Part shown: piece after piece, positions 8,825 to 49,434 of the stretch
Layout of the letters: every line of letters starts with the position of its first letter
Position numbering within the stretch: the first letter of the stretch is position 1
NCBI GenBank assembly: GCA_045401155.1
Contig: CP174360.1
Coordinates: 310,769 to 374,768, forward strand
Length of the DNA: 64,000 nucleotides
Direction of reading: 5' to 3'
From: Candidatus Minusculum obligatum
GTDB lineage: Bacteria; Patescibacteriota; Minisyncoccia; Phycocordibacterales; Phycocordibacteraceae
The notes under the pieces: model-generated
What the model was told of the DNA's origin: nothing
The model's input: only the letters and a program-made list of their open reading frames with translations
Database searches by the model: none
Made by a program: the position numbers and the translations under genes

Positions 8825-9394
8825 ATGAGCAATGCTCAACAGGCAACTGTTCTGGACCAGATGCAGGCTGAACTGGCGGGGATCGATCTCGGTAACTACG
8901 AGATCAATCCGATGGAAGACGAGGGGTTCGATTCGAACCGCATGATTCACGTCGGTCCGGCGCCCGATCAGGTCAAGCGCCTGATCGTGTTGCGGTATCT
9001 TCTCGAGAAGCAACTCGACCAGGAAAAACGCTTTGGCCACAATGCGGTCGAGGTGTTGCGCAATCTCGGTGGCGACGTTGTCGCGACCGTTCGTGCGGTC
9101 AGGGCTATGAAAGATTTCACGGAAATCGATGAAGCTCTCCAGAACATTGCCGACGCGAACGAGCGGATCAATACGCTCTCGCGTAAGCTCGAGCTTCTGA
9201 ACATCCTGACCCAGGAAGAACTTTCTTGCCATTTCGGCGACAAGATTTCCCGGGTCAAGTTTCAGGGCGGTGAAGCCGCCCTCATGGTGATCCTGTCCGA
9301 CTGGACGGTCGCGACGATGAAGGATGCTGAACGCATTTTCGGTCGTCCTGCCGACGGCTTCATGGAAATGCTTCACGAGGCCATGGGCGGCTAG
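8825..9394 (+). CDS. Hypothetical protein encoded in GC-rich island 1 (foreign codon usage)
   Basis: RBS GGGAG 7 nt upstream of ATG 8825. About 57% GC with high GC3, against about 42% in flanks. Own GC-rich terminator. No family recognised. Confidence 0.6.
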   Translation: MSNAQQATVLDQMQAELAGIDLGNYEINPMEDEGFDSNRMIHVGPAPDQVKRLIVLRYLLEKQLDQEKRFGHNAVEVLRNLGGDVVATVRAVRAMKDFTEIDEALQNIADANERINTLSRKLELLNILTQEELSCHFGDKISRVKFQGGEAALMVILSDWTVATMKDAERIFGRPADGFMEMLHEAMGG

Positions 9395-13638: not shown

Positions 13639-13944
13639 TCAGTTGCCCCAGGTCATTTGGCCGAAAAGATTGCCGGTAGCCGTCATGCGACAGATGATGC
13701 CGCCCGCACGAGCACGATTTTCGGAGTCGTACGCAGTGAAGCCGCTAACGACTTCGGTCGTGATGCCATCGACGTGACACGCTTCGATGTCACCTTCGCG
13801 TGCTTCGTGAAGGCGCGTTTCCGCAGCATCGATGTAGTCGGCCGCAACAAGGTGATCTGCAAAGCTTTGCTGGGTGTTTTGTTGCTCTTGGCTGCCACAC
13901 CCACACAGGGTCGTGACCACGAGAATTGTAAGGATCATTTTCAT
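13639..13944 (-). CDS. Small secreted/lipoprotein-like hypothetical protein in GC-rich island 2
   Basis: RBS GGAG upstream of MKMILTILVVTTLCGCGSQ (signal peptide with Cys). About 58% GC against about 42% host. Start at 13944, not ORF-track 14106. Confidence 0.55.
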   Translation of the reverse strand: MKMILTILVVTTLCGCGSQEQQNTQQSFADHLVAADYIDAAETRLHEAREGDIEACHVDGITTEVVSGFTAYDSENRARAGGIICRMTATGNLFGQMTWGN

Positions 13945-25148: not shown

Positions 25149-25223
25149 TTGTTTGGAGTATTAAAAAACATCTTTCTATATAAGGCTATCTTTGCTTGCT
25201 CCGTATGGTGCGAGATGTTCGAA

Positions 25224-26192
25224 CTATTCCATTTCAGACTTAATTTTTCTCAACCTATCAGTAAGGGAGTCCCATTGCCTGCGAAGTAGTGGGGCAGGGG
25301 CACCTGAGCCGTAATTAACTGAGTCTGCAAGTGCTTGAGCGTATTCATCTCGCTTACCAGCAAAGAAACGTTTGCTTGGGTTAAAGCTTTCAACTATTTC
25401 AAAATCAACGAAATGAGGCCACCTTCTCTTGTTGATAGGAATGTTTCCATCTTCAAAGAAAGTTCCTTTTTCTCCTTCAAGAATCATGTAATAGGGTTCC
25501 TTTATTTTTGTCAGATACCATGCAGAAACATCTAGAGGGAGTTTTGGGTTTGCGCTTACTCCCATTCCTTCTTTTGCATACCCAAGTATAAATAGACAGT
25601 AGTCTCCTTGTTGAATATCAAGAATATTTCTTAGGGCTTTTTCATTCTGCGTGTATGCCCAGAATGGTGAGTTCGGAGATGCTGTCAACATTCGCTCGAA
25701 GTTTTTATGAGATGTTCCTCGTAGAAACACAATCCAATATTGTGAAGAAGAAGAAAGGTCTTTGCTTTTTGCCTGATAAATAAGAGATTCTCGGGCAAGT
25801 TTTGAAACATTCTCCTGCATCCATGAAGTAAAGTCATCCTCATTAATAGTTACGTGAGGAACTAGTCCGTCGTTTTCTTTTTCACCAAACGACACAAGAA
25901 AACCTTCATTTTCTTGCAAATAAGAGAGTTGATTGTTCTTTGTTAAATCCTTTGCTGACCATTTTACTTCAACAGGAATGCCGCGATCGTAGTCTTTAAA
26001 GTAGATTGTGAGATCTGCTCTATAACCTGACTCTTTGTGAGTTTCTTCTGGTGCTATTAGATTTATCTTCTTACCATGAAATTTTTCAGGCAAAAGACCG
26101 TCTCTTACTTTTTTAGTTCCAAAATAATAACGTTCGAATAAGTATCGATGAATCAGTTTTTCATTGAAAGCATTCCTATTAATTTTTTTCAT
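25224..26192 (-). CDS. PD-(D/E)xK nuclease-like protein with C-terminal EVE/PUA-like domain (cassette gene)
   Basis: RADLTIYFKDYDRGIPVEVKW (D...EVK motif). The C-terminal beta-rich domain is speculative. Flanked by direct repeats that end in GCTCCG. Confidence 0.45.
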   Translation of the reverse strand: MKKINRNAFNEKLIHRYLFERYYFGTKKVRDGLLPEKFHGKKINLIAPEETHKESGYRADLTIYFKDYDRGIPVEVKWSAKDLTKNNQLSYLQENEGFLVSFGEKENDGLVPHVTINEDDFTSWMQENVSKLARESLIYQAKSKDLSSSSQYWIVFLRGTSHKNFERMLTASPNSPFWAYTQNEKALRNILDIQQGDYCLFILGYAKEGMGVSANPKLPLDVSAWYLTKIKEPYYMILEGEKGTFFEDGNIPINKRRWPHFVDFEIVESFNPSKRFFAGKRDEYAQALADSVNYGSGAPAPLLRRQWDSLTDRLRKIKSEME

Positions 26193-26300
26193 TTATTCCG
26201 ATTGTACCAAAAGGTTCGAACTCCTGCTCAGGGTATCAAAAAAGAGCCCTAAAAATAAGGCTCTTTTTGCTGGCTCCGTGTGGTGCGAGATGCTCGAACC

Positions 26301-26825
26301 TTAGTTGGGTAGTTTTTCAATAATCTCCGCGACCACATCATCTGATGGTTTGTTTGTGTGTATGGTGATGTTACCGTATTTCTTATACTGCTCAAAACGT
26401 TCTAAGAATTTTTTCTTTTCCCTTTTCTTGTCTAGACCATTCCATCGTTTTAATTGTCTTTCTGCAATCATTTCTACGTCTTGTTCCGGATTAGGAGAAG
26501 GAAGGAAAAGTATAGAATAACCAGTAGCTAGAATCTCTTCATTTTGCTTTATAACTTCTGGTAAATGTGTATGAACAAGAAAGCCAGATGATGTGGCGAG
26601 TACGGCTGGTTCTGAGATAGTTTCGGAAAGAAGTTTGGTAAGTTCTGAATTTTTCTCACAGTACTTATCGTATCCTTTGGTATCTATATAAGTTCCTATG
26701 TTTTCAATTTGAGTACAAAATTCTGAATCTACATCTATAAACGTGTATCCAAGTTTTTGTGCAAGTAGATTCCCGATTGTTGTCTTACCAACGCTGGCTG
26801 GTCCGATAAGAAGAATTAGTTTCAT
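26301..26825 (-). CDS. Shikimate-kinase-like P-loop NTP kinase, paralog 1 (cassette gene)
   Basis: MKLILLIGPASVGKTTIGNLLAQKLGYTFIDVDSEF. About 40% identical to 27801..28313. Start at MKLILL (26825) preferred over ORF-track 26885, which would read through the terminator hairpin. Confidence 0.65.
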   Translation of the reverse strand: MKLILLIGPASVGKTTIGNLLAQKLGYTFIDVDSEFCTQIENIGTYIDTKGYDKYCEKNSELTKLLSETISEPAVLATSSGFLVHTHLPEVIKQNEEILATGYSILFLPSPNPEQDVEMIAERQLKRWNGLDKKREKKKFLERFEQYKKYGNITIHTNKPSDDVVAEIIEKLPN

Positions 26826-26902
26826 TTTCTCTAGGATACCAAGGTTCGGAAATCCTCTACAGGGTATTAAAAAATAGCCCGTCAAATAAGGCTATTTTTG
26901 CT

Positions 26903-27162
26903 GGCTCCGTATATATGATGAAATCCGAATGTATTTCAGACGGAGTCTGAAATGAACGGCGAGAGCGCGTGGTACCTCGCACGTAAACCTCCGCAAGGTG
27001 ATTTCCTACTAGCTCCCGCACCCGCACGCCTCGCTGTACTCGCCGTGCACAAATAGAATCCTTCTTTGCACTTTTATCCTTTCCCGCGCCCCCATTTTTT
27101 GGGAAATAGGGAAAAGAAGTTTCTATTTGCCTTCTGCTTCGCGCAGAAGGGGTGCTTGTGCC
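26903..27162 (+). repeat. Core GGCTCCG + Y repeat, copy A (internally diverged)
   Basis: Shares 5' (TATATATGATGAAATCCGAATGTATTTCAGACGGAGTCTGAAATGAACGG) and 3' (TTTCCCGCGCCCCCATTTTTTGGGAAA...CCTTCTGC..GCAGAAGG) segments with copies at 28360, 30015 and 41075(rc). Confidence 0.85.
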
Positions 27163-27217
27163 TCGTATATAAAAGTGTTGCCCCACCTGGGAGGGTGGGG
27201 CAAGACGCTTCTCGTTA

Positions 27218-27427
27218 TCACGCACTTTCAGTCTCCCGAACGTGTTCGTTCATGGGACAGTTCTCCCGATGAACCAAGTTGTTGTTTCGGTTCAGCGGGG
27301 GAACGTCGTGCGGATAGCCAAGATGTGTGGGTCCTGTGTCGATGCCGGTAGCGCTGCAGCACAAGCAGCGGTAGCTTGACGGCTCATCGACGATTGCAGA
27401 CCGTACAGGGACAGGGACGGTTTTCAT
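27218..27427 (-). CDS. Hypothetical 69-aa protein, GC-rich island 3, gene B
   Basis: RBS GGAGAG, then spacing, then ATG. GC-rich. Followed by hairpin ttgccccacc-tggga-ggtggggcaa at 27178-27203. Confidence 0.45.
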   Translation of the reverse strand: MKTVPVPVRSAIVDEPSSYRCLCCSATGIDTGPTHLGYPHDVPPLNRNNNLVHRENCPMNEHVRETESA

Positions 27428-27448
27428 ATTTTCTCTCCGATCCAGAGG

Positions 27449-27745
27449 TTATCGCTTGTCAGTTCTGATGCCGTGGCTTGCTCGACAGGTGAGAAAGCAT
27501 AGGTTTCGAACTGCATCTTCCGGTAGTCTGCTCCAGCCCGTGAAGACGATATCTTCTTCGTGAGCCTGAAACATTGCGAGAAATCCCTCGCCATCATCAC
27601 CGCGCCGTCTCCGCGCACGGTGTTTCCTGACGATAATTTCTCCGTATCTTCCATTGACCATCTTTCGAAGCCAACGTTGTCTGCGCCTATGGCTTTGGGG
27701 TTTCATCCCTGCGCCATGAGCGAGAGCAAGGAATACATCCGGCAT
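27449..27745 (-). CDS. Hypothetical basic 98-aa protein, GC-rich island 3, gene A
   Basis: Strong RBS GGAGGG 5 nt before ATG. Arg-rich segment HRRRQRWLRK...RKHRARRRRG. About 55% GC. Confidence 0.5.
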   Translation of the reverse strand: MPDVFLALAHGAGMKPQSHRRRQRWLRKMVNGRYGEIIVRKHRARRRRGDDGEGFLAMFQAHEEDIVFTGWSRLPEDAVRNLCFLTCRASHGIRTDKR

Positions 27746-27800
27746 ATTGCCCTCCAGTTGGTGGTAAAAACTCTGTTTAGAAAGTAGTACAAATATTACC

Positions 27801-28313
27801 TCATGTCAATTTTTGGATGATTTCTTCAACTATGGTTTCTTTGTCTTTGCTTGGGTCAATTTGTATGTCTCCGTACTGTTTATATTTTGCATGTCTATCT
27901 AGAAACTTTTGTTTTTCTTTCTCAAAATCCAGATTCCACCGTTTTATCTGTCGAGCTGCTATTTGATCTGCAAATGATTCAGGAGGGAGTAGGAGTATAG
28001 ATACTCCATATTCTTTTAGAAGCTTTAAATGCTTTTGTACAAGATGTGGCGACTTCTCGTGTACAAGAAAACCTGAAGGAGTTGCAAAGATTATGTCTTT
28101 TGGATTTTCCTTTGTAAGTTTGAGAGCAAGTTCGGAGTTTGCTTCACAATAACTCTCATAACCATATTCTTTTAAATATTCTGATATTGGAGCAATTTGT
28201 GTACAGAATTCTTCGTCTATATCAATAAAGTTCTTATCAAGTCTCTTTGCGAGGCTGGTTCCAGCTGTTGTTTTTCCAACACTTGCAGGTCCGATCAGGA
28301 AGAGATTGTTCAT
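27801..28313 (-). CDS. Shikimate-kinase-like P-loop NTP kinase, paralog 2 (cassette gene)
   Basis: MNNLFLIGPASVGKTTAGTSLAKRLDKNFIDIDEEF. Same architecture as paralog 1. Confidence 0.65.
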   Translation of the reverse strand: MNNLFLIGPASVGKTTAGTSLAKRLDKNFIDIDEEFCTQIAPISEYLKEYGYESYCEANSELALKLTKENPKDIIFATPSGFLVHEKSPHLVQKHLKLLKEYGVSILLLPPESFADQIAARQIKRWNLDFEKEKQKFLDRHAKYKQYGDIQIDPSKDKETIVEEIIQKLT

Positions 28314-28359
28314 TAAAAAAAGTATAGCAAAACCTCCCAAAAGGAGGCCTGTACTGCCT

Positions 28360-28616
28360 GGCTCCGTATATATGATGAAATCCGAATGTATTTCAGACGG
28401 AGTCTGAAATGAACGGCGAGAGCCGGTGGTACATCAGACATACACCTCCGCGAGGTGATCTCCACATACTTTCCGCACCGCACGACTCGCTCCGCTCGCC
28501 GTGCACAAATAGAATCCTTCTTTGCACTTTTATCCTTTCCCGCGCCCCCATTTTTTGGGAAATAAGGAGAAAGAAGTCTCTATTTGCCTTCTGCTCCACA
28601 GAAGGGGTGCTTGTGC
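28360..28616 (+). repeat. Core GGCTCCG + Y repeat, copy B
   Basis: Nearly identical to copy C. 35-bp palindrome at 28382-28416. Confidence 0.85.
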
Positions 28617-28852
28617 TTAATCTTAGATATAGATATTGCTTATATTAATGCGGTTAATTTAGATAAAGCTCTCAAGTTTGGTTTGAAATGGGAACTTGAT
28701 TATAAGAGATTTTATACTTAGCTTAGTGATAAGTATAAAATTGAACAAACACACCTTTTTATTTGGCTATGGCAGAGTACTTTTACACATCAAGCCTTAC
28801 TGCAGAGAAAGCGGAAATGGTGTAGGGAAGTAAGTTGCTGTTACAGGAACAG

Positions 28853-29821: not shown

Positions 29822-29910
29822 TGTTATTGTATTAAAATTTAATAATTGTATGAATGGTAGACTAATTACAGTATATCACTAAGTCTATAGCTTAAATCTT
29901 GTTTTTTGGT

Positions 29911-30270
29911 GGACAAACGAGTGTCCTTTTTCTTCAAAACCCCCTGGGAAATCCTTGCAAATTTCCCCCTTCAGAATTTGGGAAATCTCCCAAAATCTGA
30001 ACTCTGTACTATCCGGCTCCGTATATATGATGAAATCCGAATGTATTTCAGACGGAGTCTGAAATGAACGGCGAGAGCCGGTGGTACATCAGACATACAC
30101 CTCCGCGAGGTGATCTCCACATACTTTCCGCACCGCACGACTCGCTCCGCTCGCCGTGCACAAATAGAATCCTTCTTTGCACTTTTATCCTTTCCCGCGC
30201 CCCCATTTTTTGGGAAACAAGGAGAAAGAAGTTTCTATTTGCCTTCTGCTTCGCAGAAGGGTGCTTGTAC
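29911..30270 (+). repeat. Intact X-core-Y unit, copy C (direct orientation)
   Basis: X has three hairpins (ggaca..tgtcc; gggaaat..atttccc; attttgg..ccaaaat). Core GGCTCCG is at 30015-30021. Y follows, with its palindrome at 30037-30071. Confidence 0.85.
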
Positions 30271-30390
30271 CTCCAGGTATGTGTCTACTTCCTCTAGAGA
30301 AGCAAAATGCACTTTCCAGAGCCTCTAGCGAGGCTTCCAAACGCTTCAATTACACCAATTGAAGCGTTTGAGGGGAAAGTGCGTTAGAAG

Positions 30391-30813
30391 CTAGATTTTA
30401 GTGTAAAAAACGGATTTTCCAGTGTTTCCAACTTGTTTTATCTTGTTTTGCTTCTCTAGGATATTGAAATAGCGGAATGCTGTTGTTCTTGAGATTCTGA
30501 GTAGTTTTTGTGCATCTTTGTTTGTTATTTGTTCTTGTGTGTCGAAAAGAGACATAATTTTGTCTAACTTCTTCTGTTTTCGTGTTTGGATTGCTGCGCG
30601 TGCTTTTGCAAGGAGTGTTTGTATGAAAGGTTGAGAAGGTTGTGTTGGTTGTGGAGTGGGTAGGGGAGTTTGGGTTGGTTCTTGTGTAGGTGTAGGTTCT
30701 TCAGTTTGAGGTTCAGATGCTTCTGGTGTTGTTTCAGATCCCTCTGGTTGTGGAGGGGTAGAGAGAACAGTTTCTTCAATTTGCAGTTCTTCTGTGAGAG
30801 GTTCTTCTTCCAT
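30391..30813 (-). CDS. Pro/Thr-rich protein with C-terminal winged-HTH (HTH_24-like)
   Basis: C-terminus ITNKDAQKLLRISRTTAFRYFNILEKQNKIKQVGNTGKSVFYTKI. Paralogous C-terminus in 31530..31811. Confidence 0.55.
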   Translation of the reverse strand: MEEEPLTEELQIEETVLSTPPQPEGSETTPEASEPQTEEPTPTQEPTQTPLPTPQPTQPSQPFIQTLLAKARAAIQTRKQKKLDKIMSLFDTQEQITNKDAQKLLRISRTTAFRYFNILEKQNKIKQVGNTGKSVFYTKI

Positions 30814-30814
30814 A

Positions 30815-31489
30815 TTAGATTTCTTTTATAAGTTTTTCAATAATATCTTCTTCTGGGTATCCTTCTACAAAACTAAAGCCTGTTCCAATTTCCCACAGAA
30901 ATGATGACAGCATTCTATTGTCACGTGCTGTTACTTCCATATTCTCAATAGAATAGATCATTCGCGAAAGACCAGAATATACATTATAAAGTCTTTCATC
31001 TTTTACTTCTAAAGTGTTAAATACAACGCTCATAAAATCCCTAAATACCAGAAGCTCAATAAGAATTTGTCTTACAAAAACTTCACCATCATCAGCTTCC
31101 ATTTTGTTTCTGACACGATCCCAGCGTGTTTCGCCAGTATTCAATTCTTCCTTAAAGAATCTACGAAAATTATCTCGCTTGGATGTTTCTTCAATCCTTT
31201 CTGCATTTATCAGTTCTTCTTGTGTTCCTAATAAGATGCGAGTTAAATCCTCCCTAAATTTCCCGTAGTGTTTTTTGAGATTTTTTCGAAGTGTTTGGCG
31301 GTGTCTTCTTTCCGGTTCTTTTCCAAGTTGATAAAAGGTGATGGCAATTAGAATGGAAACAATCAACTGTAATATCAAATCGGAATAGTTTATAAATAAA
31401 TAGGGCAGATCTTTAAAAAATATAAGCACGAGAGCGAGAAATAAAACATGTGCTGCGTACAAAAGGTTATTATCTTTTACAAGATTCAT
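30815..31489 (-). CDS. Membrane protein, partner of the wHTH protein
   Basis: Two TM helices and a cytoplasmic domain. 1-nt intergenic gap to the downstream gene. Confidence 0.5.
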   Translation of the reverse strand: MNLVKDNNLLYAAHVLFLALVLIFFKDLPYLFINYSDLILQLIVSILIAITFYQLGKEPERRHRQTLRKNLKKHYGKFREDLTRILLGTQEELINAERIEETSKRDNFRRFFKEELNTGETRWDRVRNKMEADDGEVFVRQILIELLVFRDFMSVVFNTLEVKDERLYNVYSGLSRMIYSIENMEVTARDNRMLSSFLWEIGTGFSFVEGYPEEDIIEKLIKEI

Positions 31490-31529
31490 TATAAAAACAG
31501 TATACCAAACGGCTCAATGCATTGAGCCG

Positions 31530-31811
31530 TTAAATTTTTTTGTAGTAAACGTGTTTTCCTGTTGTTCCTATCTGCTTTATTTCTCCTTCATTCTCTAATT
31601 CTTGGAGATATCTGGTTGCAGTTGCATCTGATACATTAAGAAGCTTTTCAATGTCATTGTTTTGTATTTTCTGGGCAGTTTTTAGGTGTTCAAGAATTTG
31701 CTCTTTTCTTTTTGTTTTCTGAGAGAGGGGGAGAGTGACTTGTCTTCGTGCAAGGTAAAAGCCGATAATTATTCCAGCAAATGCAATAAGAATAAAGGTA
31801 AGTATATTCAT
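31530..31811 (-). CDS. TM-anchored winged-HTH protein
   Basis: N-terminal TM helix. [34 protein letters not shown]. Confidence 0.55.
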
Positions 31812-31834
31812 TAGTTAGATTTTAGCACCTGTGC

Positions 31835-32812
31835 TCAAGTTCCAAGATCTTTTTTCGACTTTTTTGGGCAAGACCTTGAAAAATTACTTGTATGTATGTT
31901 TCCTGTTGATTCCTCCATGATAGTCATCTTAAACATTTTCTTTTCTTTGTTTAGATCTCCCCAAGGTATTTTGTCTTCTACTGTTTGAACAAGGACTCCT
32001 CTCAGTCCGCCAGGAAATTTTTCTTTAGACGCGACTTCTCCAAGAAGGAAAATAATAATTTCTCTTGAAAAGTAGAAAAACTTTATGGGATAAAATTTAA
32101 AAGCATCAGCAGCATTTTTCTTAAGAATAAGTGGGAAATAAGGTATCAATTTTTCAAATTTATTAGTGTGATATTCAATCGAATCTATTTTAAAGATTCC
32201 ATGTTCAACATCATTTCTTGCTTTTACAAATTCAGTTAACCACTCTTTTTTATTTTTTTGTATGAACTCCTCTAGTCTTCGCGCTTCATTTTTATCTGTA
32301 AATTTTGAAGAAAGGTTGCTCAACTTAGTTTCAAACTTTTTATGATCGTCTTTTCCAAAAAGAAACTCTATATTAAATCCTAAGTCACGAGAAAGTTTAC
32401 AAAGTGCATCTTTAACAATATCTCCATCTACAAATAAGTGCCTTGTATAGAAAGAGCAAATATGATCAAAATCCTTTACTTGCCACGTGTTGTTATTTTT
32501 TGTTACTCCAATACCCTCCTTCAGGTCGAATGTGTGTTTTTTGTAATCTTCCATGGCTCGTTCAGAGAGGGAAAATAGATCAAGTAATGATTCGTATAAT
32601 TTATTAAGATTCTCTGTCTCAATACATAAGTTTTGTAGTATTCCATTTATTTCAAAAAGGAAAGTGGTATGTATATCGTTAAAATTTCTTGGCGCCTCCT
32701 TAATCAAAGGTCCTTTTCTTGGGTACGGCTTACAGCAATTTTTAAATTTCACTCCACTGCCACACGGACATTTCGAATTAATTGTGAATCTATTTTCTTT
32801 TTTGGAAGCCAT
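31835..32812 (-). CDS. SEC-C motif (CPCGSGxKFKNCC) domain protein
   Basis: N-terminal SecA-C-terminal-like zinc motif CPCGSGVKFKNCC. Remainder unrecognised. Confidence 0.5.
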   Translation of the reverse strand: MASKKENRFTINSKCPCGSGVKFKNCCKPYPRKGPLIKEAPRNFNDIHTTFLFEINGILQNLCIETENLNKLYESLLDLFSLSERAMEDYKKHTFDLKEGIGVTKNNNTWQVKDFDHICSFYTRHLFVDGDIVKDALCKLSRDLGFNIEFLFGKDDHKKFETKLSNLSSKFTDKNEARRLEEFIQKNKKEWLTEFVKARNDVEHGIFKIDSIEYHTNKFEKLIPYFPLILKKNAADAFKFYPIKFFYFSREIIIFLLGEVASKEKFPGGLRGVLVQTVEDKIPWGDLNKEKKMFKMTIMEESTGNIHTSNFSRSCPKKSKKDLGT

Positions 32813-32884
32813 TATTCGTGTGTCACGTTTTAAATTCTCTGCTGTCTACCACATCTGTTTTTTGGTCTATTTTATTGAATGTTT

Positions 32885-33271
32885 CTAAGCAAGGGCATCA
32901 ATGCTTTGTTTGAGTTGTTTTTCTACATCTTGAGCAACATCTTTAAGTATATCTGATTCAACCATACTCATTGCGGCAGAAGGAAGGATAGAAGAAACAT
33001 ATGTATTCTTGTTTTGTTCGTACACAATCACATTACAAGGAAGAAGGAGTCCTATTTCTTTTTCTGCTGAGAGTGCTTTGTGCGCAAATGCAGGATTACA
33101 CGCGCCAAGAATTGTGTAGCGATCATAATCAACACCAATTTTTTCTTTCATGGTTTTTTGTACATCAATAGTTGTAAGTACTCCAAAACCATTATCAGCA
33201 AGTGATTTTTTCACAGCACCAATTGCCTCATCAAAAGGAAGGGACGTCTTTACGGTGTGACTGTATTTCAT
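32885..33271 (-). CDS. DUF302-family protein
   Basis: GLLLPCNVIVYEQ motif. Confidence 0.6.
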   Translation of the reverse strand: MKYSHTVKTSLPFDEAIGAVKKSLADNGFGVLTTIDVQKTMKEKIGVDYDRYTILGACNPAFAHKALSAEKEIGLLLPCNVIVYEQNKNTYVSSILPSAAMSMVESDILKDVAQDVEKQLKQSIDALA

Positions 33272-33507
33272 GCAAGTTTATTGTATGTCACTGCAAATAG
33301 ATAGAAAGCAATAAATGACATAACTGCAGCCTCAATCATTCCTGTTAGTGTTCCAATAACAGTGGGGGAATAGAAGAGGTGCATTTCTTGCATTGCTGAA
33401 ACGGCAATCGTATAAATTCCTAGAGAGTTAAAGATGGTTAGAATGAGCATAATAAGTGCAGAAACAATTCCTGCTGCATACCCAAGTGCTTTTGCGTGTA
33501 ATTTCAT
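33268..33507 (-). CDS. Small membrane protein
   Basis: 79 aa, 2-3 TM helices, 4-bp overlap with the DUF302 gene. Confidence 0.45.
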   Translation of the reverse strand: MKLHAKALGYAAGIVSALIMLILTIFNSLGIYTIAVSAMQEMHLFYSPTVIGTLTGMIEAAVMSFIAFYLFAVTYNKLA

Positions 33508-33552
33508 AGTAGAAAAAATTTACTTTAATAAAATAGGGGATAAAGAATTGAC

Positions 33553-33580
33553 GTATAGTACCCCCTAGGGGTATTATACC
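33553..33580. promoter_or_regulatory. Putative CsoR/RcnR-type operator within a TTGACG-N18-TATTAT promoter
   Basis: GTATAGTACCCCCTAGGGGTATTATAC: G/C tract flanked by an AT-rich inverted repeat, located in the divergent promoter region directly upstream of the csoR-like gene. Confidence 0.6.
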
Positions 33581-33585
33581 TGCTA

Positions 33586-33858
33586 ATGAAGAAAGATATC
33601 AAGAAGAGAGTTGTGCACAGGTTGAAAATCATCGAGGGGCAAGTAAAAGGTTTGCAAAGAATGGCAGAAGAAGAAGAGTATTGTATTAGCATCATTACTC
33701 AAGTTTCAGCAATGAGACAAGCACTTTCTTCTGTAGAAGACTTAATGCTTGAAAATCACTTACTTACACACGTGGTAAGCCAAATGAAGAGTGAGAAAGG
33801 TCAAAAGAAAGCAGTGGAGGAGATGTTGTCCATTTATAAACTTTCAAAGAAAAAGTAG
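33586..33858 (+). CDS. CsoR/RcnR/FrmR-family metal- or persulfide-sensing repressor
   Basis: DUF156 fold with YC at residues 32-33 and NHLLTH (His58, His62). Fingerprint is x-C-H-H. Confidence 0.7.
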   Translation: MKKDIKKRVVHRLKIIEGQVKGLQRMAEEEEYCISIITQVSAMRQALSSVEDLMLENHLLTHVVSQMKSEKGQKKAVEEMLSIYKLSKKK

Positions 33859-33862
33859 ATAT

Positions 33863-34690
33863 ATGAATGTAAAAATACTTGGAATTGGAGCTTTTGTCGC
33901 ATTACTCATTGCTGGCTTTGTGTTGGTGCAAGGTGGTGTTCCAGAATCTAAAATGGTTGAAGAGCATAGTGATTCTCTAGAATCATACGAAATGAGTCCT
34001 TCACAAGCTGTTAGCCGAATGCAAAGCAAAGATGATGTTGTGGTTCTTGATGTTCGAACAATTCAAGAATATGAAGAAATTCACCTTCAAAATGCTCTCT
34101 TGCTCCCCGTGCAGGAACTTTCTCAAGCTTCACTTGATGCGATTGGTCTTTCTGACAAAGATCAGGAAATAATTCTCTATTGCAGGAGTGGTGCTCGGAG
34201 TAAGACGGCTTTCGATATCATGAATTCTCTTGGGTATACAAACATAAAGAGTGTTGCAGGGGGAATGGTTCATTGGCAAGAAGATAATTACCCGCTTACA
34301 GAGGTGGGAAAGTTCAATGAATCAAAGAATATTCAGGAAAGTGAGGAAAATACAACAGGTCCAAAGATAAGTATCGATCGTAAATTACATGATTTTGGAG
34401 AGATTCCTCAATTTGCAGGTGTAGTACAGACAATGTTTACCGTTACAAATTTGGGGACAGAAACTCTTATTGTTGGCGATATTACAACCAGTTGTAGCTG
34501 TACGTCAGCAACACTGTCTTCATATTCTATTGGGGCAGGAGAGAGCGCTGAACTTACCGTTCTCTTTGATCCTGATTTACATGAAGAGCCAGAGGGTGTG
34601 TTTACGCGAACGGTATTTATCCCAAGTAATGACGTGAACACTCCAGAAGCAGAAGTTGCAGTACAAGTCGATATATTAGAAGGAGTTTAA
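33863..34690 (+). CDS. Membrane-anchored rhodanese-domain protein with C-terminal DUF1573 (SCxCT) domain
   Basis: TM helix. Rhodanese fold with active-site CRSGARS. C-terminal TSCSCTS motif. Confidence 0.65.
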   Translation: MNVKILGIGAFVALLIAGFVLVQGGVPESKMVEEHSDSLESYEMSPSQAVSRMQSKDDVVVLDVRTIQEYEEIHLQNALLLPVQELSQASLDAIGLSDKDQEIILYCRSGARSKTAFDIMNSLGYTNIKSVAGGMVHWQEDNYPLTEVGKFNESKNIQESEENTTGPKISIDRKLHDFGEIPQFAGVVQTMFTVTNLGTETLIVGDITTSCSCTSATLSSYSIGAGESAELTVLFDPDLHEEPEGVFTRTVFIPSNDVNTPEAEVAVQVDILEGV

Positions 34691-34701
34691 AATTAGATAA
34701 T

Positions 34702-35172
34702 ATGAACAATTACATTATAGGAGCACTAGTTATTGCAGGAGCACTTATTGCAGGAGCAATATTCTTTGTGGGTGGAGGTCCTGTTATAGAAAAGGTTGTG
34801 GCATCGGAGATTACTCTTGAGGCAAATGAGTATGATTTTGGCGATATTGACATTTTTGGTGGAAAGGTAAAAACAACTTTCCCTATCACAAATACTGGAA
34901 ATGCTGATGTGACAGTATTGTCTGGAGTTACAAGTTGTATCTGTACGGAAGGAGAAATAGATTCACTTTCCTTTGGTATGCATGGAAGTGATGGCGAGAC
35001 AGTAATACCGGCAGGAGAGACAAGGGAGTTGGTTGCAATATATGACCCATTAGCACACGGTCCTGATGGAGTTGGGAAAATAAAACGACAGTTGCAACTA
35101 AAAACAAATTCTTCAGTAACTGAGTACATCGATGTAAGTTTTACAGGAAATGTAGTAAAGAATGCTGAGTAA
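34702..35172 (+). CDS. DUF1573-domain protein
   Basis: TM anchor, TSCICTEGE motif. Confidence 0.55.
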   Translation: MNNYIIGALVIAGALIAGAIFFVGGGPVIEKVVASEITLEANEYDFGDIDIFGGKVKTTFPITNTGNADVTVLSGVTSCICTEGEIDSLSFGMHGSDGETVIPAGETRELVAIYDPLAHGPDGVGKIKRQLQLKTNSSVTEYIDVSFTGNVVKNAE

Positions 35173-35186
35173 CAAATAATATTCTC

Positions 35187-36140
35187 ATGGATAAAGTAAA
35201 AATAGCACTTGTAGGTATTGCATTCATTCTCTTGTCAATCATGCTTGTAGGAGGATTTAGTTTGCTAACTTCTCCTACTATGGTTCCAGGATTTTCTTTG
35301 GCATTTTTGGCAGGGATATCAATGATTGTGCTTCCGTGTACTTTTCCTCTTGTGTTTATCATTGTTCCTCTTGCGCTCTCAAAACAAAGCGTGAAAAAAG
35401 GAATCGTTATGGCGCTTCTTTTTGGTCTTGGTCTTACCGTTACATTTACGCTATATGGTCTAGCACTTGGATGGCTTGGTGGTTTTGTCGGATTGTACAA
35501 AGTTGTCAGTGCAATGCTTCTTATTGGGGGTATAGCAGCACTTTTCTTTGGATTGGCAGAGCTTGGCTTAGTAAACTTCTCTTTGCCATTTCGAAAAACT
35601 ATTCTTCCACAGTCGCTCCAGCAAAAGAATGACTACATACGGAGCTTCTTTCTAGGTTTCTTCTTGGGAAACGCCGGAGTTGGTTGCCCAAATCCAGCTT
35701 TCTATATTCTTTTTGGATATGTAGCTACACTTGGAGATCCTATTACTGGAGCATCTCTTGGAGCATTACATGGAATAGGGAGAATGGCTCCACTTCTATT
35801 TCTAGTAGTTCTTGCAATTCTTGGAATAAATATGATGGAAAAGGTGAGTACATATCAGGAAAGAGTGAAGCGCTGGGTTGCATGGTCGCTTGTCGTACTT
35901 GGGGCATTCATACTTAATTACGGACTTTTTGGCATGGCATGGTTTGAAAAATCAGGTATTCATGAAGCATGGAATCAGTTCCTTCTTGCGGTGGTTCCAA
36001 AAATTGCAGAGTCGGCAGAGCTTGAGTCAGCACTCCAGCTTCCACAAGGTGTTGGTGGTGTTATGCCTTGGATAGTTCTTGGTGCGGTTATAAGTGGAGT
36101 AATTGTATGGAGTGCAGTTAAGGCACGAAATAGTAAATAA
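35187..36140 (+). CDS. CcdA/DsbD-family thiol-disulfide transmembrane electron-transfer protein
   Basis: Conserved Cys in TM helices (LPCTFPLV and GVGCPNPAF). Confidence 0.65.
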   Translation: MDKVKIALVGIAFILLSIMLVGGFSLLTSPTMVPGFSLAFLAGISMIVLPCTFPLVFIIVPLALSKQSVKKGIVMALLFGLGLTVTFTLYGLALGWLGGFVGLYKVVSAMLLIGGIAALFFGLAELGLVNFSLPFRKTILPQSLQQKNDYIRSFFLGFFLGNAGVGCPNPAFYILFGYVATLGDPITGASLGALHGIGRMAPLLFLVVLAILGINMMEKVSTYQERVKRWVAWSLVVLGAFILNYGLFGMAWFEKSGIHEAWNQFLLAVVPKIAESAELESALQLPQGVGGVMPWIVLGAVISGVIVWSAVKARNSK

Positions 36141-36142
36141 TT

Positions 36143-36289
36143 ATGACTAACTTTATACAAATAGCATATGCACATGGAGGAGAGGAGGTTGAAACTGTAA
36201 CAACTCTTGATTTCTCAGGGCCACTTATTGCTCTGGGAATGATTGTCGCAGCAATTATTATTGCAAAAGTTATTTCTAAGAAAAAATAA
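36143..36289 (+). CDS. 48-aa small membrane protein (not in ORF track)
   Basis: MTNFIQIAYAHGGEEVETVTTLDFSGPLIALGMIVAAIIIAKVISKKK, tightly packed between ccdA-like and trx-like genes. Confidence 0.35.
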   Translation: MTNFIQIAYAHGGEEVETVTTLDFSGPLIALGMIVAAIIIAKVISKKK

Positions 36290-36290
36290 C

Positions 36291-36548
36291 ATGATTAAAG
36301 TAACGCTTGTTCGTCCAGAAGGGTGTCATCATTGTAAGGAGGTTAAAAATACGCTTGAGGGAATGAGAGATGAATTTCCTGATATTTCAATTGAAGAAAT
36401 TGATATGGTTACACCTGAAGGAAGGGAGCTTGTTCAAAAATATCGCATTCTATCAAGTCCGGGGATTTTAATTAATGATGAATTCTTTGCTTTTGGTGGC
36501 GCTACTGAGGAGCAGTTTAGAAAAAAGTTTAACGAAATTAATGGCTAG
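36291..36548 (+). CDS. Small thioredoxin/glutaredoxin-fold protein (CHHC active site)
   Basis: MIKVTLVRPEGCHHCKEVK. Start at ATG 36291 rather than ORF-track TTG 36243. Confidence 0.6.
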   Translation: MIKVTLVRPEGCHHCKEVKNTLEGMRDEFPDISIEEIDMVTPEGRELVQKYRILSSPGILINDEFFAFGGATEEQFRKKFNEING

Positions 36549-36562
36549 GCCCGATAAAGAAA

Positions 36563-37276
36563 ATGTTATTGGGAATTAAAAGTAAAAAAGTTGCACTCTT
36601 GCGCCACTTAGCAATGGCTATCGTTGGAGGACTGCTTGTATATTTGGTTTGGTCACTTAATGGTACGTGGAGTCCAGACATGCGATTGTGGAAAGCTTTT
36701 GGCGGAGCATCTTTTTTCCTCCTCTGGTTTGCTGTTGTTATTGGACCATTAGCGAAACTTCTTCCATCATTTAACTTAATGCTCGCATATCGTCGCGAGG
36801 CAGGAGTTTGGTTTTTTATCATCGCATTGGTGCATGGGTACCTCATTCTTGATGGCTGGGTGCGGTGGAATGTATGGGAATTTTTCGGCTATCAATACTT
36901 TACTGAAGTAGAGATGTATTTACGAGTTGAGCCTGGGTTTGGATTAGCAAGTTTACTTGGATTTGTTGCTCTCATGTTTGCTCTTGCGCTTGCTGCAACA
37001 TCTTTTGATTGGGCAGTTAATCTTCTAGGTATTACTTCTTGGAAATGGTTGCATATGTTTGCGTACGTTGTGTTTTATTTGGCAGCAATGCATGTTGTAT
37101 ATTTTGCTTTTATTCACTACACACCTTCGTTTAATAGGCTTGCAATGGGGCTTCCAACAGATTATCCAGATAACCCATTGAAATATTATTATCTCAACGC
37201 ACTTTTGAGTGTGTTTGTTTTGCAGACATCTGCTTTTATTGCAACGGTACGTAAAAATAAAAGAGCAAGCTGGTAG
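36563..37276 (+). CDS. Ferric-reductase-like transmembrane heme-binding component (MsrQ/YedZ-like)
   Basis: 6 TM helices with paired His (ALVHGY, AAMHVVYFAFIHY). Confidence 0.5.
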   Translation: MLLGIKSKKVALLRHLAMAIVGGLLVYLVWSLNGTWSPDMRLWKAFGGASFFLLWFAVVIGPLAKLLPSFNLMLAYRREAGVWFFIIALVHGYLILDGWVRWNVWEFFGYQYFTEVEMYLRVEPGFGLASLLGFVALMFALALAATSFDWAVNLLGITSWKWLHMFAYVVFYLAAMHVVYFAFIHYTPSFNRLAMGLPTDYPDNPLKYYYLNALLSVFVLQTSAFIATVRKNKRASW

Positions 37277-37279
37277 CGT

Positions 37280-37960
37280 ATGGTATTTGAAACAACAATT
37301 AAAGGACGTAAAAAAGTTGCAAAAGGTACTTGCGAAATAACTTTCAAAAGACCCGAGAAATTTGTATTTAAAGCAGGGCAATATATACAAATTGCCATAC
37401 CAGAATTACTCAAGTCAGATTTAAGGGGTAATTCACGACTATTCTCTGTCACTTCATCTCCGGATGATATAGAAAATATCCGCGTAGTTTTTAGAGTCTC
37501 TAATAGTGGGTTTAAACAAACACTGGTAAGCATGCCAGTTGGTGCAACGGTACATATTGAACAGGCTGCTGGAAGTTTTGTTTTACCGCAATCACCAAAA
37601 CAGCAACAAATTTTTGTTGCTGGCGGTGTTGGCATCTCTCCATTTATGAGTTACTTCAATCAAAAGAACACTCCATTTGAGAATGGACAGATCATTCTTT
37701 TTTATGGAAATCAAAACGAAGAAAGTGCCGCATACATTGCTGAGCTTCGCTCTTTTGCAAAGAGGTATCAATCTTTTTCACTACAAGAGCTGTATGAAAG
37801 ACCTTCCTCTGAATTCTTTAGGAGAAATGCGCAAATGTATAAAAATGCCGCATGGTGGGTGGTTGGGCCACCGGCAATGGTTGGAGTTGTTGTAAACGGA
37901 CTTCAATTAGGAGGTGTGGACCAAAATAATATTATAACTGAACCCTTTGAAGGATATTAG
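37280..37960 (+). CDS. FNR-like FAD/NAD(P)H oxidoreductase domain protein
   Basis: RLFSVTS (RxYS FAD motif), GGVGISPF (NAD motif). Confidence 0.6.
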   Translation: MVFETTIKGRKKVAKGTCEITFKRPEKFVFKAGQYIQIAIPELLKSDLRGNSRLFSVTSSPDDIENIRVVFRVSNSGFKQTLVSMPVGATVHIEQAAGSFVLPQSPKQQQIFVAGGVGISPFMSYFNQKNTPFENGQIILFYGNQNEESAAYIAELRSFAKRYQSFSLQELYERPSSEFFRRNAQMYKNAAWWVVGPPAMVGVVVNGLQLGGVDQNNIITEPFEGY

Positions 37961-37964
37961 ATAT

Positions 37965-38735
37965 ATGAAAAATACTTTAGGATTAATTGTTTTTATTCTC
38001 GTGCTTGTTGCACTAACTGCAATATTTTTTCTGAATGGCAGAAATACAGAAGTAACACCCGATGAAACATTTTCTATATCTGCTCAGGATATCAAAGACC
38101 AAATTACCATTGATCGTGTTGTTATGGACCAGCCAGGATTTATTGTGGCACGAGAAATTATAGATGGAAAACCGGGGCAGATAGTGGAAGTAAGTAAGTA
38201 TTTAAAGGTGGGTGAAAATGTTGATGTTGTTATAGGTCTTGCACAACCATTAATTGAGGGGGTTGGTGTGAGCAGTGATCAATTTGATCAAGAAATTGTT
38301 GTTGCTGTGTATTATGATGATGGAGATAAGGGGTTTAATCCGTCTCTTGATTCTCTTGCGTATCGTGCAGGAGAAGTGCTCGCACGGTTTGTCAAAACAG
38401 GAATAATGGCGCCTGAGTCAGCAGTGGTGCCAAACACTAAGGGTGAAAATATTGATGTTGCTCAAATAGTTACCTATACAGACAGTGGGTTTATTCCTCG
38501 GAACAGTGAAATTTCTCCTGGTGATACTGTTCGATTTATTAATAAGAGCAGTAATCAAATGTGGGTTGCTTCAAATGGGCACCCAGCGCATATGATACTT
38601 CCAACATTTGATCAGTTCAGTGCTTCTTCATATGGTGAAAGTTATGAATACACTTTTGAAAAAGAGGGGGTGTGGGAGTATCACGATCACATAAATGCTA
38701 GCCAGGTTGGTGTCATATTAGTTCATTCAAATTAA
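37965..38735 (+). CDS. Secreted hypothetical protein with C-terminal cupredoxin-like beta domain
   Basis: TM/signal N-terminus. C-terminal His residues (NGHPAH, YHDH), no Cys. Confidence 0.45.
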   Translation: MKNTLGLIVFILVLVALTAIFFLNGRNTEVTPDETFSISAQDIKDQITIDRVVMDQPGFIVAREIIDGKPGQIVEVSKYLKVGENVDVVIGLAQPLIEGVGVSSDQFDQEIVVAVYYDDGDKGFNPSLDSLAYRAGEVLARFVKTGIMAPESAVVPNTKGENIDVAQIVTYTDSGFIPRNSEISPGDTVRFINKSSNQMWVASNGHPAHMILPTFDQFSASSYGESYEYTFEKEGVWEYHDHINASQVGVILVHSN

Positions 38736-38740
38736 ATTAC

Positions 38741-39211: not shown

Positions 39212-39254
39212 GCATGTTACTATTACTTAAATAAAAAAATAAAATATTGTTACT

Positions 39255-39980: not shown

Positions 39981-39984
39981 TCTT

Positions 39985-40506: not shown

Positions 40507-40515
40507 ATAATTAGT

Positions 40516-41410: not shown

Positions 41411-42904
41411 ATGAGATTCTTTTTATACATACGCAAATCAACCGATGAGGATGATAGGCAGATATTGTCGCTTGAAGCGCAAGAATTTGAATTGAAGCAG
41501 TTGGCTTCGCAAGAGCAAATAGAGATAGTAGAGGTGTTTCGAGAGTCACAGACTGCAAAAGAACCAGGGCGGAAAGTTTTTAATGAAATGCTCTTGCGAA
41601 TAGAGAATGGGGAAGTTGATGGAATTCTATCGTGGCATCCGGATAGATTGGCACGCAATAGTGTAGATGGCGGACGTATTATTTATTTAGTGGATGCGGG
41701 GAAGATACAATTCCTCAAATTCCCAACATTCTGGTTTGAGCCAACGCCTCAAGGCAAATTCATGCTGAACATTGCTTTTGGTCAGTCGAAATATTTTGTT
41801 GATAATCTTTCAGAGAATACTCGTCGTGGACTTCGTCAAAAATTGCGCCGTGGCGAATGGCCGGGACCAGCACCCATTGGCTATCTAAACGATAAGTTAG
41901 GTCACACTATTGTGCTGGATCCCGAGCGTGCGCCACTTCTGCAGAAGTTGTTTGAGAAATATGCAGAGGGGAATTATTCTCTGAAAGATTTACAAAATAT
42001 TGCAAAGTCTATTGGCTTGTTTAGTAGGGGAGGAAAGGTGTTATCTGTTTCGCTTATTCAAAACATCCTCTCCAATCCTTTTTATTATGGAGTTATGAGA
42101 TATGGAGGAGAATTGTATGAAGCAAAACACGAGCCTTTGATTTCTAAGAAACTGTTTGATTCCATTCAGAAGATAATGGCTAGCAAGTCGAGACCTCGCA
42201 AACATGGAGAGGTAGAGTATCCACTGCGTGGATTATTTGAGTGTGGCGAGTGCTCGTGCGCCATTACTTCTGAAATGCAAAAAGGACATCATTATTATCG
42301 CTGCACGAAAAAGCGTGGCGCTTGCTCGCAAAAATATCTTCGAGAAGAGCTTTTGGTTGAGCAGGTTGATGATGTCCTTTCAAACGTTTCTATACCTGAT
42401 TCGTGGGCAGAGGAGATGCTCGTGAGATTGGATGAGGAGAAGGAGTCTGAGGAGAGAGAAACTTCTCTGTATGCTCAAAAATTAAGAGACGATATTGCAT
42501 CTTTTGATCTCAAGCTTGATGCACTTCTAGATACTTATTTAGAGAAAAGTATTTCAAAAGAGGAGTATCAGAGCAAAAAGCAAAAACTGTTAGATCAAAA
42601 GATAGATTTGCAGGAGAAATTAGACTCAATTTCGCATACAGGAAGTTTCTGGCTCGAACCGATGCGAAACTTAATTTTAGATAGTAAACAAGCCAAATAT
42701 ATTGCTTCACAAAAATCTCTCTTCGAGAAGAGAGATTTTTGCAAAAAGGTTGGCTCGAACCTTGTTTTAGTGGACAAACGAGTGTCCTTTTTCTTCAAAA
42801 CCCCCTGGGAAATCCTTGCGAATTTCCCCCTTCAGAATTTTGGAAATCTCCCAAAATCTGAACTCTGTACTATCCGGCTCCGCGGACAGGATTCGAACCT
42901 GTGA
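41411..42904 (+). CDS. Large serine recombinase (resolvase-domain integrase)
   Basis: N-terminal YIRKSTDEDDRQILSLEAQ with catalytic Ser. Recombinase domain, zinc ribbon CGECSCA...YYRC, coiled coil. ORF runs through repeat X and stops inside the tRNA 3' end. Confidence 0.85.
   Translation: MRFFLYIRKSTDEDDRQILSLEAQEFELKQLASQEQIEIVEVFRESQTAKEPGRKVFNEMLLRIENGEVDGILSWHPDRLARNSVDGGRIIYLVDAGKIQFLKFPTFWFEPTPQGKFMLNIAFGQSKYFVDNLSENTRRGLRQKLRRGEWPGPAPIGYLNDKLGHTIVLDPERAPLLQKLFEKYAEGNYSLKDLQNIAKSIGLFSRGGKVLSVSLIQNILSNPFYYGVMRYGGELYEAKHEPLISKKLFDSIQKIMASKSRPRKHGEVEYPLRGLFECGECSCAITSEMQKGHHYYRCTKKRGACSQKYLREELLVEQVDDVLSNVSIPDSWAEEMLVRLDEEKESEERETSLYAQKLRDDIASFDLKLDALLDTYLEKSISKEEYQSKKQKLLDQKIDLQEKLDSISHTGSFWLEPMRNLILDSKQAKYIASQKSLFEKRDFCKKVGSNLVLVDKRVSFFFKTPWEILANFPLQNFGNLPKSELCTIRLRGQDSNL
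42772..42890 (+). repeat. X repeat + core GGCTCCG, copy R, abutting the tRNA 3' end
   Basis: Identical to X in copy C. Inverted relative to X in copy D, so the recombinase gene is bracketed by roughly 100-bp inverted repeats. Confidence 0.85.
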
Positions 42905-48738: not shown

Positions 48739-49434
48739 TTACCAGGTGCGGCTCACGCTCGCTCCGTAGGTCACGTGATGTGCTTCCGGTCCGGAGGGAT
48801 TGAATCCACCGACAGAAAGCGTGAGTGACCAGTTCTCGAAAGACCGTGTCGTCGAAGCTTCCCATCGTGGAGACGTGTAGTCCGAATCGGTACTGTGCGT
48901 GACGCCCAGAAGCATATTGGTGCTCCAGCTCTCACTGACCGTATGATTCCAGCTCGCGGCGGTGCGCCACAAGTTGGTTTCAATCAGGCCGGTGAGTTGA
49001 TCAGCGCCGAGCATCAGGTTGATGCTGTTGTTGGCGTCGATCTCGATCGTGTCACTCACCGTGGCGCGGAATCGGATGATGTCCGTGCCGGTAAAGTCGA
49101 GGTCGCCGACATTGGGAGTCGGAATATCGAACAACGAGATCGAGGCACTGCAGGAAAGGTTCCCGCACGCGCCTGCCCAGCCGACAGTGTAGTCAACCTC
49201 ACGGCCCTGGACATTTCCATCGAGCGCTTCAGAGCGCCAGTAGTCAAGGAAGAATCCATTCCCGTAGGAGGTAGTGATGCCGCCTTGAAGAACGGGTTCG
49301 TCGTATTGGGTGAAGCCGAACTCCGAGAAGGAGTAATCCGACTTCACACCGACGTAGATCGTGAGTTCTTGAGCGCTCGCTGTCGAGCCAAGAAGCGCAA
49401 CAGCAGCAAGCATGGTAAGGATCGTTTTCATCAC
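48739..49434 (-). CDS. Proteobacterial-type outer-membrane beta-barrel protein (TIGR02001/MipA-like) in GC-rich island 4
   Basis: Signal peptide. LTIYVGVKSDYSFSEF...GFFLDYWRSE. Alternating amphipathic strands, C-terminal W. About 58% GC. Confidence 0.6.
   Translation of the reverse strand: MMKTILTMLAAVALLGSTASAQELTIYVGVKSDYSFSEFGFTQYDEPVLQGGITTSYGNGFFLDYWRSEALDGNVQGREVDYTVGWAGACGNLSCSASISLFDIPTPNVGDLDFTGTDIIRFRATVSDTIEIDANNSINLMLGADQLTGLIETNLWRTAASWNHTVSESWSTNMLLGVTHSTDSDYTSPRWEASTTRSFENWSLTLSVGGFNPSGPEAHHVTYGASVSRTW

Follow-up and report, generated by a model that had tools for sequence, protein, structure and literature searches.

A GC-rich islet with two tandem open reading frames in Candidatus Minusculum obligatum: a possible horizontally acquired ORFan unit

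The sequence analysed is a 64,000-nucleotide (nt) stretch of the genome of Candidatus Minusculum obligatum, referred to here as the window; all window coordinates are counted from its first position. Within it, a short insert rich in guanine and cytosine (GC), hereafter islet 3, was delimited on the minus strand between a shikimate-kinase-like gene (kinase 2) and one copy of a repeated sequence, Y_A. Its GC fraction is 0.52-0.54, compared with 0.42 for the whole window and about 0.36 for both flanking kinase genes. The islet holds two candidate open reading frames (ORFs), of 98 and 69 amino acids (aa), and we give about an even chance to the reading that these form a bicistronic ORFan unit of horizontal origin, which may or may not be expressed today. 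The coordinates of the features discussed are collected in Table 1.

The architecture set out in the preliminary description of this locus was recovered in full on the minus strand. The GC-rich unit is composed of an Arg-rich and a Cys-containing ORF, lies between repeat Y_A and kinase paralog 2, and carries Shine-Dalgarno-like sites, GGAGGG and GGAGAG, at 4- and 5-nt spacing from the two ATG codons; the second site is contained within the 21-nt spacer which separates the two ORFs on the same strand. The second ORF is followed, as described, by a GC-rich terminator. The hairpin, read from 27203 to 27178, is TTGCCCCACC-CTCCCA-GGTGGGGCAA, followed by CACTTTTATA; it was flagged as terminator-like by the promoter/terminator scan, and the tail 3' of it reads CACUUUUAUA. 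At the other end of the unit, a weak promoter may be proposed from the letters only: its putative TTGACA box overlaps the last codons of kinase 2, and it falls below the threshold of the same scan. Since no terminator is found between kinase 2 and islet 3, read-through from kinase 2 is an alternative to this promoter.

Table 1. Position of islet 3, of its components and of the other features discussed, in the window and, where indicated, in related loci.
Feature	Position	Strand	Description
GC-rich islet 3	27170..27770	-	Composition profiles; lies between the stop codon of kinase 2 and the inner end of repeat Y_A
Possible weak sigma-70-type promoter	27781..27809	-	TTGACA 27809->27804, 17-nt spacer, TACTTT 27786->27781; read by eye
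Shine-Dalgarno-like GGAGGG	27750..27755	-	4-nt spacer (CAAT) to the ATG of the 98-aa ORF
98-aa ORF (candidate)	27449..27745	-	ORF list; 17 Arg, isoelectric point (pI) 11.2
Shine-Dalgarno-like GGAGAG	27433..27438	-	5-nt spacer (AAAAT) to the ATG of the 69-aa ORF
69-aa ORF (candidate)	27218..27427	-	ORF list; 4 Cys, 4 His, 8 Pro, pI 6.0
Alternative 76-aa ORF	27424..27654	-	Other frame; TGA overlaps the ATG of the 69-aa ORF (ATGA); no Shine-Dalgarno site
Intrinsic-terminator hairpin	27178..27203	-	10 bp, 7 G-C; 14 nt past the stop codon of the 69-aa ORF
Repeat Y_A	26896..27169	-	One of four Y copies in the window; minus-strand 3' end CGGAGCC, then terminator hairpin
Shikimate-kinase-like paralog 2 (kinase 2)	27801..28313	-	Directly upstream of islet 3, same strand; Pfam SKI, E = 1e-17; XKT74899.1
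Kinase 1	26301-26825	-	XKT74898
Islet 1	8825..9394	+	Shine-Dalgarno site, ORF, GC-rich hairpin terminator; 189-aa hypothetical protein, XKT74872
Islet 2	13639..13944	-	Shine-Dalgarno site, ORF, GC-rich hairpin terminator; 101-aa lipoprotein-like, XKT74879
Islet 5	48739..49431	-	Shine-Dalgarno site, ORF, GC-rich hairpin terminator; 230 aa, signal peptide, XKT74930
Repeat Y copies	26896-27169, 28353-28622, 30008-30276		All in + orientation
Repeat Y copy	41311-41078		Inverted, truncated
Repeat Y in relatives	L001 11687-11956; L013 10553-10820		
tRNA-3'-end-like repeats with hairpin	25158-25224, 26233-26299, 26864-26930; L013 ~10990-11040		GGTTCGAGC...CGGAGCC
Large serine recombinase	41411..42904		Sole recombinase among the neighbouring ORFs scanned
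tRNA gene	43495-42875	-	Group I intron, Rfam RF00028 at 42924-43197
PIF1-like helicase			NCBI annotation, XKT74895
Antiporter			NCBI annotation, XKT74896
322-aa protein			NCBI annotation, XKT74897, ACJKSS_01910
Kinase 1			NCBI annotation, XKT74898
Kinase 2			NCBI annotation, XKT74899
DUF5667 protein			NCBI annotation, XKT74900, ACJKSS_01925

The probability of such an arrangement was evaluated on dinucleotide-preserving shuffles of 27170-27800. An ATG-initiated ORF of at least 98 codons occurred in 15% of the shuffles, while two such ORFs, of at least 98 and 69 codons and lying on one strand without overlap, were found together in only 0.13% of them, a figure which leaves both Shine-Dalgarno sites and the terminator position uncounted. 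A chance origin of the promoter-to-terminator two-cistron layout is unlikely. The preliminary description had itself allowed for ORFs arising by chance and without homologs; the absence of homologs was confirmed, as reported below, but the rarity of the tandem among shuffles speaks against chance.

Islet 3 is not the only sequence of this kind. The window contains four further GC-rich islands, three of which (islets 1, 2 and 5) are single genes of the same build. Their proteins are all annotated and all fall in singleton clusters. That encoded by islet 5 matches Pfam Gcw_chp and is named 'TorF family putative porin' by NCBI. Patescibacteria are generally assumed to be devoid of an outer membrane, and an outer-membrane-type porin would be unexpected in a cell without one.

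The translation signals of the islets differ from those of the genes around them. A Shine-Dalgarno core within about 16 nt of the start codon was found in at most one of the 23 native genes in the window, against five of the five islet ORFs. Many native genes show instead a TATACT or TACAAT box 6-9 nt before the ATG, which suggests that native mRNAs may be mostly leaderless. A survey of Parcubacteria reported the anti-Shine-Dalgarno motif in only 48% of 16S rRNAs (PMC9297842).

Related loci were used to follow the islets outside the window. Two metagenome contigs carrying the PIF1-like gene, L001 and L002, were obtained by translated scan, with core genes 70-78% identical to those of the window. 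In L001 islet 2 is missing, and the two genes that flank it in the window are separated there by no more than a short intergenic stretch, rich in AT; similarly, the gap between MreB and holB, which hosts islet 5 in the window, measures 120 nt in another relative, L010. No GC-rich island is present anywhere in L001 or L002. The DNA of islet 3 has no similar sequence elsewhere in the window, nor in any of the related loci fetched.

Islets 1 and 5 were also compared to islet 3 by RNA folding. The minus strand of islet 3 folds with z = -4.8 against shuffled controls, and a three-way-junction-like domain with the terminator, 27350->27170, with z = -5.1. By dinucleotide shuffling, z was -3.75 for islet 1 and -5.35 for islet 5, as compared to +0.26 for one native gene. 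By codon permutation, values were -6.9 and -4.6 for islets 1 and 5, -4.65 for the 98-aa ORF and -2.8 for the 69-aa ORF, while native genes ranged from -0.4 to -0.8. For reference, 300-nt chunks of E. coli gave a mean of about -1.1 and a minimum of -3.0. The unusually stable folding links islet 3 to the class of islets 1 and 5. Perfect short hairpins were considered as the source of this property and account for it in islet 1 only, the sole islet in which they are in excess. A search of islet 3 against Rfam returned nothing at gathering threshold, and only noise when matches up to E <= 10 were accepted (E >= 0.24, far below gathering scores).

From these features, islet 3 may be viewed as a lineage-specific GC-rich islet imported from a donor using Shine-Dalgarno sites into a Parcubacteria-type genome, whose own genes are AT-rich, devoid of such sites and apparently leaderless. 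It would lie within a series of remnants of integrative elements, now decayed, beside a tRNA gene and an element carrying a large serine recombinase. Transcription, if any, would come from kinase-2 read-through or from the weak promoter that overlaps the stop codon of kinase 2, with the 27203-27178 hairpin as its end point. We infer that the ORFs were real genes in the donor, and that the unit is expressed now or was so formerly. The basic 98-aa product, which carries a net charge of +10 and two Arg clusters (SHRRRQRWLRK, residues 18-28; RKHRARRRR, residues 40-48), would bind nucleic acid.

A number of results weigh against this reading, starting from annotation. NCBI reports no coding sequence, pseudogene or RNA in the interval from one kinase gene to the other: their accessions, XKT74898 and XKT74899, follow each other directly, and no locus tag is left free in the series from ACJKSS_01910 to ACJKSS_01925. 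The same pipeline called islets 1, 2 and 5 as genes but nothing in islet 3. Exact-product look-ups found no record matching the products of the 98-aa ORF, of the 69-aa ORF or of any of the alternative ORFs tried.

Coding signal was evaluated by a position-specific base model trained on the three annotated GC-rich genes of islets 1, 2 and 5, which amount to only about 520 codons. In leave-one-out tests the true frames of these genes scored -5.8 to -5.9 and the shifted frames -6.2 to -6.6. With this small training set the 98-aa ORF scored -6.13 in frame, and its codon-aligned antisense frame did better, at -5.98. Its GC content by codon position is.62/.48/.49, and third-position GC over 27800-27440 is highest in the frame of the 76-aa ORF rather than in that of the 98-aa ORF. 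The low score raises doubt about this ORF but does not refute it, given so small a training set and the atypical composition of any Arg-rich protein. For the 69-aa ORF the same small-sample model gave -5.91 in frame, versus -6.25 and -6.38 for the shifted frames; its third positions are C-rich and A-poor, like those of islets 2 and 5. Of the two ORFs, that of 69 aa seems to us the likelier to be a real gene. Both had been presented as genes in the preliminary description: the two-cistron layout supports the term, while the lack of annotation and, for the 98-aa frame, the lack of the codon-position signature of the annotated GC-rich genes do not. A plus-strand gene at 27560..27787 was also considered because the aligned antisense frame scores best, and was rejected, as it has no Shine-Dalgarno site, good start codon, terminator or annotation.

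Homology searches were uniformly negative, in agreement with the earlier remark that neither protein belongs to a recognisable family. Pfam, NCBIfam, PHROGs, PADLOC and PDB sequences, searched at E <= 1-10, gave no match for either ORF. A word-indexed search of 5.8 billion proteins found no match for either one, nor for the concatenated remaining open segments of the six frames, the 76-aa ORF included. For the 98-aa ORF, an exhaustive HMMER search of 1.84 billion representatives revealed no genuine homologue: two matches to large Listeria-Bacteroides repeat proteins were judged spurious, resulting from summed weak matches to a short 'F.GWS.LP' motif. Translated scans of genome, metagenome and viral contigs did not detect homologues of either ORF, and blastn and tblastn against plasmids and phages returned nothing for either. 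Accordingly, homologues under purifying selection were found in none of the collections or frames searched, nor at the related loci, and by sequence comparison both predicted products are ORFans. This status is usual for the islet class, since the proteins of islets 1 and 2 are likewise singletons.

Structure prediction, suggested in the preliminary description, was performed on the two proteins singly. Single-sequence AlphaFold models, which are weak evidence in themselves, had a mean predicted local distance difference test score (pLDDT) of 45.9 for the 98-aa product, with five low-confidence helices, and of 40.0 for the 69-aa product, which is all coil with no secondary structure. Islet 3, either kinase and the other genes of the surrounding cassettes are found in none of the fetched loci. 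Finally, the Shine-Dalgarno sites mark the islets as imports but are not proof of translation in this host. The sites had been presented as strong ribosome-binding sites; as evidence of expression they are weaker than they seem, because the host's own genes are without them.

Much of this evidence may also be accommodated by assuming that islet 3 is a non-functional relic, i.e. foreign GC-rich DNA, non-coding or decayed, in which the ORFs are a by-product of few stop codons. We regard this explanation as possible but unlikely. A single ORF of 98 codons is common enough among the shuffles, and the 98-aa frame is devoid of coding signature, with a 17% Arg content typical of GC-rich DNA read in the wrong frame. 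The absence of homologues in any frame, the lack of annotation in a window where the neighbouring islets are annotated, the low AlphaFold confidence and the predicted disorder of the 69-aa product are all in line with a relic. On the other hand, decay or chance does not easily account for the rarity of the ORF tandem, for two Shine-Dalgarno sites placed 4-5 nt from both ATGs in a genome whose own genes do not use them, nor for a second stop codon located 14 nt ahead of a strong terminator. The 69-aa frame, moreover, scores like real islet genes, and islets 1 and 2 also encode singleton proteins.

The different behaviour of the two frames could be explained if the 69-aa ORF were the sole gene and the approximately 330 nt upstream (27765->27428) formed a long structured leader or a separate structured RNA, the 98-aa ORF being untranslated. 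The coding signature confined to the 69-aa frame fits this explanation, as does folding: over 27500-27700, 150-nt windows gave z values of -3.6 to -4.0 on the minus strand and of -1.2 to -1.7 on the plus strand, and both the codon-permutation value of the 98-aa ORF (-4.65) and the domain with the terminator at 27350->27170 (-5.1) are strongly negative. Strong folding, however, is equally found inside the annotated genes of islets 1 and 5, one of which is Pfam-backed and both of which show coding signature; for this reason it does not argue against coding, and its use as an argument for a non-coding RNA was rejected, since both genes fold at least as strongly as islet 3. No Rfam family was matched, and a Shine-Dalgarno site, an ATG and a 98-codon ORF would have to coincide by accident. 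The explanation is considered improbable.

The preliminary description had likened the unit to toxin-antitoxin or other selfish modules. Under such a reading, with the toxin gene first or as another two-component system of addiction or defence, the 69-aa protein would serve to neutralise an effector, the basic 98-aa protein. The organisation alone speaks in favour of this: a very basic product and a mildly acidic one would be encoded side by side by two small genes, within a variable region rich in mobile elements. The two genes share one strand, a 21-nt spacer and a single terminator, traits which are found in toxin-antitoxin pairs but are not specific to them. The likeness to toxin-first type II systems, such as higBA and hicAB, extends to the size of the products, a basic first one of about 100 aa and a smaller second one. 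However, no toxin superfamily (RelE/ParE, MazF/CcdB, PIN, HicA, HigB, Doc, GNAT, Zeta and others) was matched in Pfam, NCBIfam, PADLOC, PHROGs or PDB, no DNA-binding antitoxin domain (RHH, HTH, AbrB, Phd/YefM) in Pfam or NCBIfam, and no defence or phage family either. No toxin or DNA-binding fold was predicted (pLDDT 46 and 40), the putative partner is modelled as coil, with predicted disorder, and nothing resembling a palindromic operator is seen at the putative promoter. Toxin-antitoxin families are typically widespread and multi-copy, whereas no relative of the pair was found in searches covering about 15 billion proteins, neither paralogues nor orthologues, and no second copy at the related loci; the unit is, in addition, unannotated. 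The comparison is therefore not retained: a module of this kind is very unlikely, islet 3 was not filed as a toxin-antitoxin system, and assignment of a function to it would be unsupported.

A last proposal, of which we think least, is that islet 3 belongs to a set of Shine-Dalgarno-led, strongly folding foreign cassettes, and that the 98-aa product or its 330-nt RNA acts on RNA, for example by adjusting how much transcription passes the 27203-27178 terminator to reach the neighbouring structured Y RNA and kinase 1; if true, it would define a new RNA-binding or regulatory module rather than a toxin-antitoxin pair. The 98-aa product may be compared with the Arg-rich-motif RNA-binding proteins of the phage lambda N type, being small, of low predicted order and endowed with two Arg clusters, in the midst of hairpin-rich RNA and just ahead of a terminator; the likeness is compositional only, as islet 3 shows no sequence similarity to them, no boxB-like target and no phage context.

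Taken as a horizontally acquired ORFan islet, islet 3 resembles others of this kind in its atypical GC content (52-54% versus about 36-42%), in translation signals foreign to the host, in being lineage-specific and without homologues, and in its location within a hypervariable, mobile-element-rich region by a tRNA gene. It differs from them in its small size, about 600 bp, in having neither a gene for mobility nor its own flanking repeats, and in lying in a host which apparently initiates translation without Shine-Dalgarno sites, so that the imported signals may not work; its ORFs, moreover, are putative.

The region hosting islet 3 was compared to the related loci. The segment 23976-30003, which follows the PIF1-like helicase on its downstream side, is highly variable: it contains a sulfatase-like gene in L002, a copy of Y and a mobile element in L001, and the antiporter with the cassette array in the window. 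The mobile element itself, about 13 kb long, extends over 30004-43038 and is 93-95% identical to sequences of two further relatives, L010 and L013, and partly to L001; the core genes of these three genomes are only 70-76% identical to those of the window. It carries repeat Y, a cargo of redox, DsbD, thioredoxin (thiol-disulfide) and PAP2 genes, a truncated inverted Y, the large serine recombinase and an intron-containing tRNA gene.

This tRNA gene was missed by ARAGORN because it is interrupted by the group I intron, which carries an ORF for an HNH-type endonuclease with the terminal motif CANCHAELHAG. With splice sites placed by inference, it is probably a tRNA-Thr(CGU). A segment named F, which comprises the final ~110 nt of the recombinase gene and reaches as far as the CGGAGCC core at the tRNA 3' end, recurs at 29904-30012 and, inverted, at 41298-41390. 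In L013, a degenerate copy of the tRNA 3' end with a hairpin is located on the far side of Y.

Between 25158 and 30003, the window shows a series of units, each closed by a tRNA-3'-end-like remnant (...TTCGA...CGGAGCC), or by a Y copy ending alike, and then by a terminator hairpin. One of these units holds islet 3, flanked there by kinase 2 and Y_A. We read the series as the possible outcome of integrative elements accumulating in tandem, and decaying, at the tRNA site. Like known cases of such accretion, the array has an intron-containing tRNA gene and a recombinase nearby, and units ending in tRNA-3'-end-like remnants; it differs in having a serine recombinase rather than the usual tyrosine integrase, and in the structured 270-nt Y which marks the element ends, while islet 3 itself is without att-like boundaries. 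Integron gene cassettes were evaluated and rejected: no IntI or tyrosine integrase is found among the neighbouring ORFs scanned, and the unit ends are tRNA-3'-end-like with terminators, not of the attC type.

Repeat Y is about 270 nt long and GC-rich, contains two invariant blocks, and folds strongly on the window minus strand (z = -4.4). The hairpin that comes after its 3' end, CGGAGCC, differs from one context to the next. Y has no Rfam family match; it may represent a structured RNA gene left unannotated, or else one att-arm of the mobile element. Another stretch, 45780-46050, is GC-rich over 270 nt, with no long ORF, and is located between the def gene and a 95-aa ORF. It also folds strongly, with z down to -5.1 on the minus strand, has no Rfam match even at E <= 1, and may be an unannotated structured RNA.

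The two kinases which border islet 3 and Y_A are shikimate-kinase-family paralogs, 50% identical to each other, and both form singleton clusters. Each lies directly downstream of a Y copy and a terminator. PADLOC comparison gave kinase 1 a weak similarity to VakA (E = 5e-5), pVip-kinase and BrxF; when genome and viral contigs were searched with the kinase alignment, no relatives were recovered. Both may be mobile-element cargo rather than aroK.

Islet 3 alone carries little weight, and the toxin-antitoxin idea is not to be carried forward. The tRNA/serine-recombinase element and the 270-nt Y repeat are probably more rewarding targets, and that element with Y, the islet class and the native translation signals each merit a study of their own. 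The value of the finding resides in the pattern: a 579-kb, episymbiont-type genome containing several small, Shine-Dalgarno-led and terminator-ended GC-rich inserts, unlike its native AT-rich genes. If these inserts are expressed, they would bear on how Patescibacteria gain and use foreign genes, possibly from their hosts, and on whether imported Shine-Dalgarno sites function at all in lineages that may have lost the anti-Shine-Dalgarno motif.

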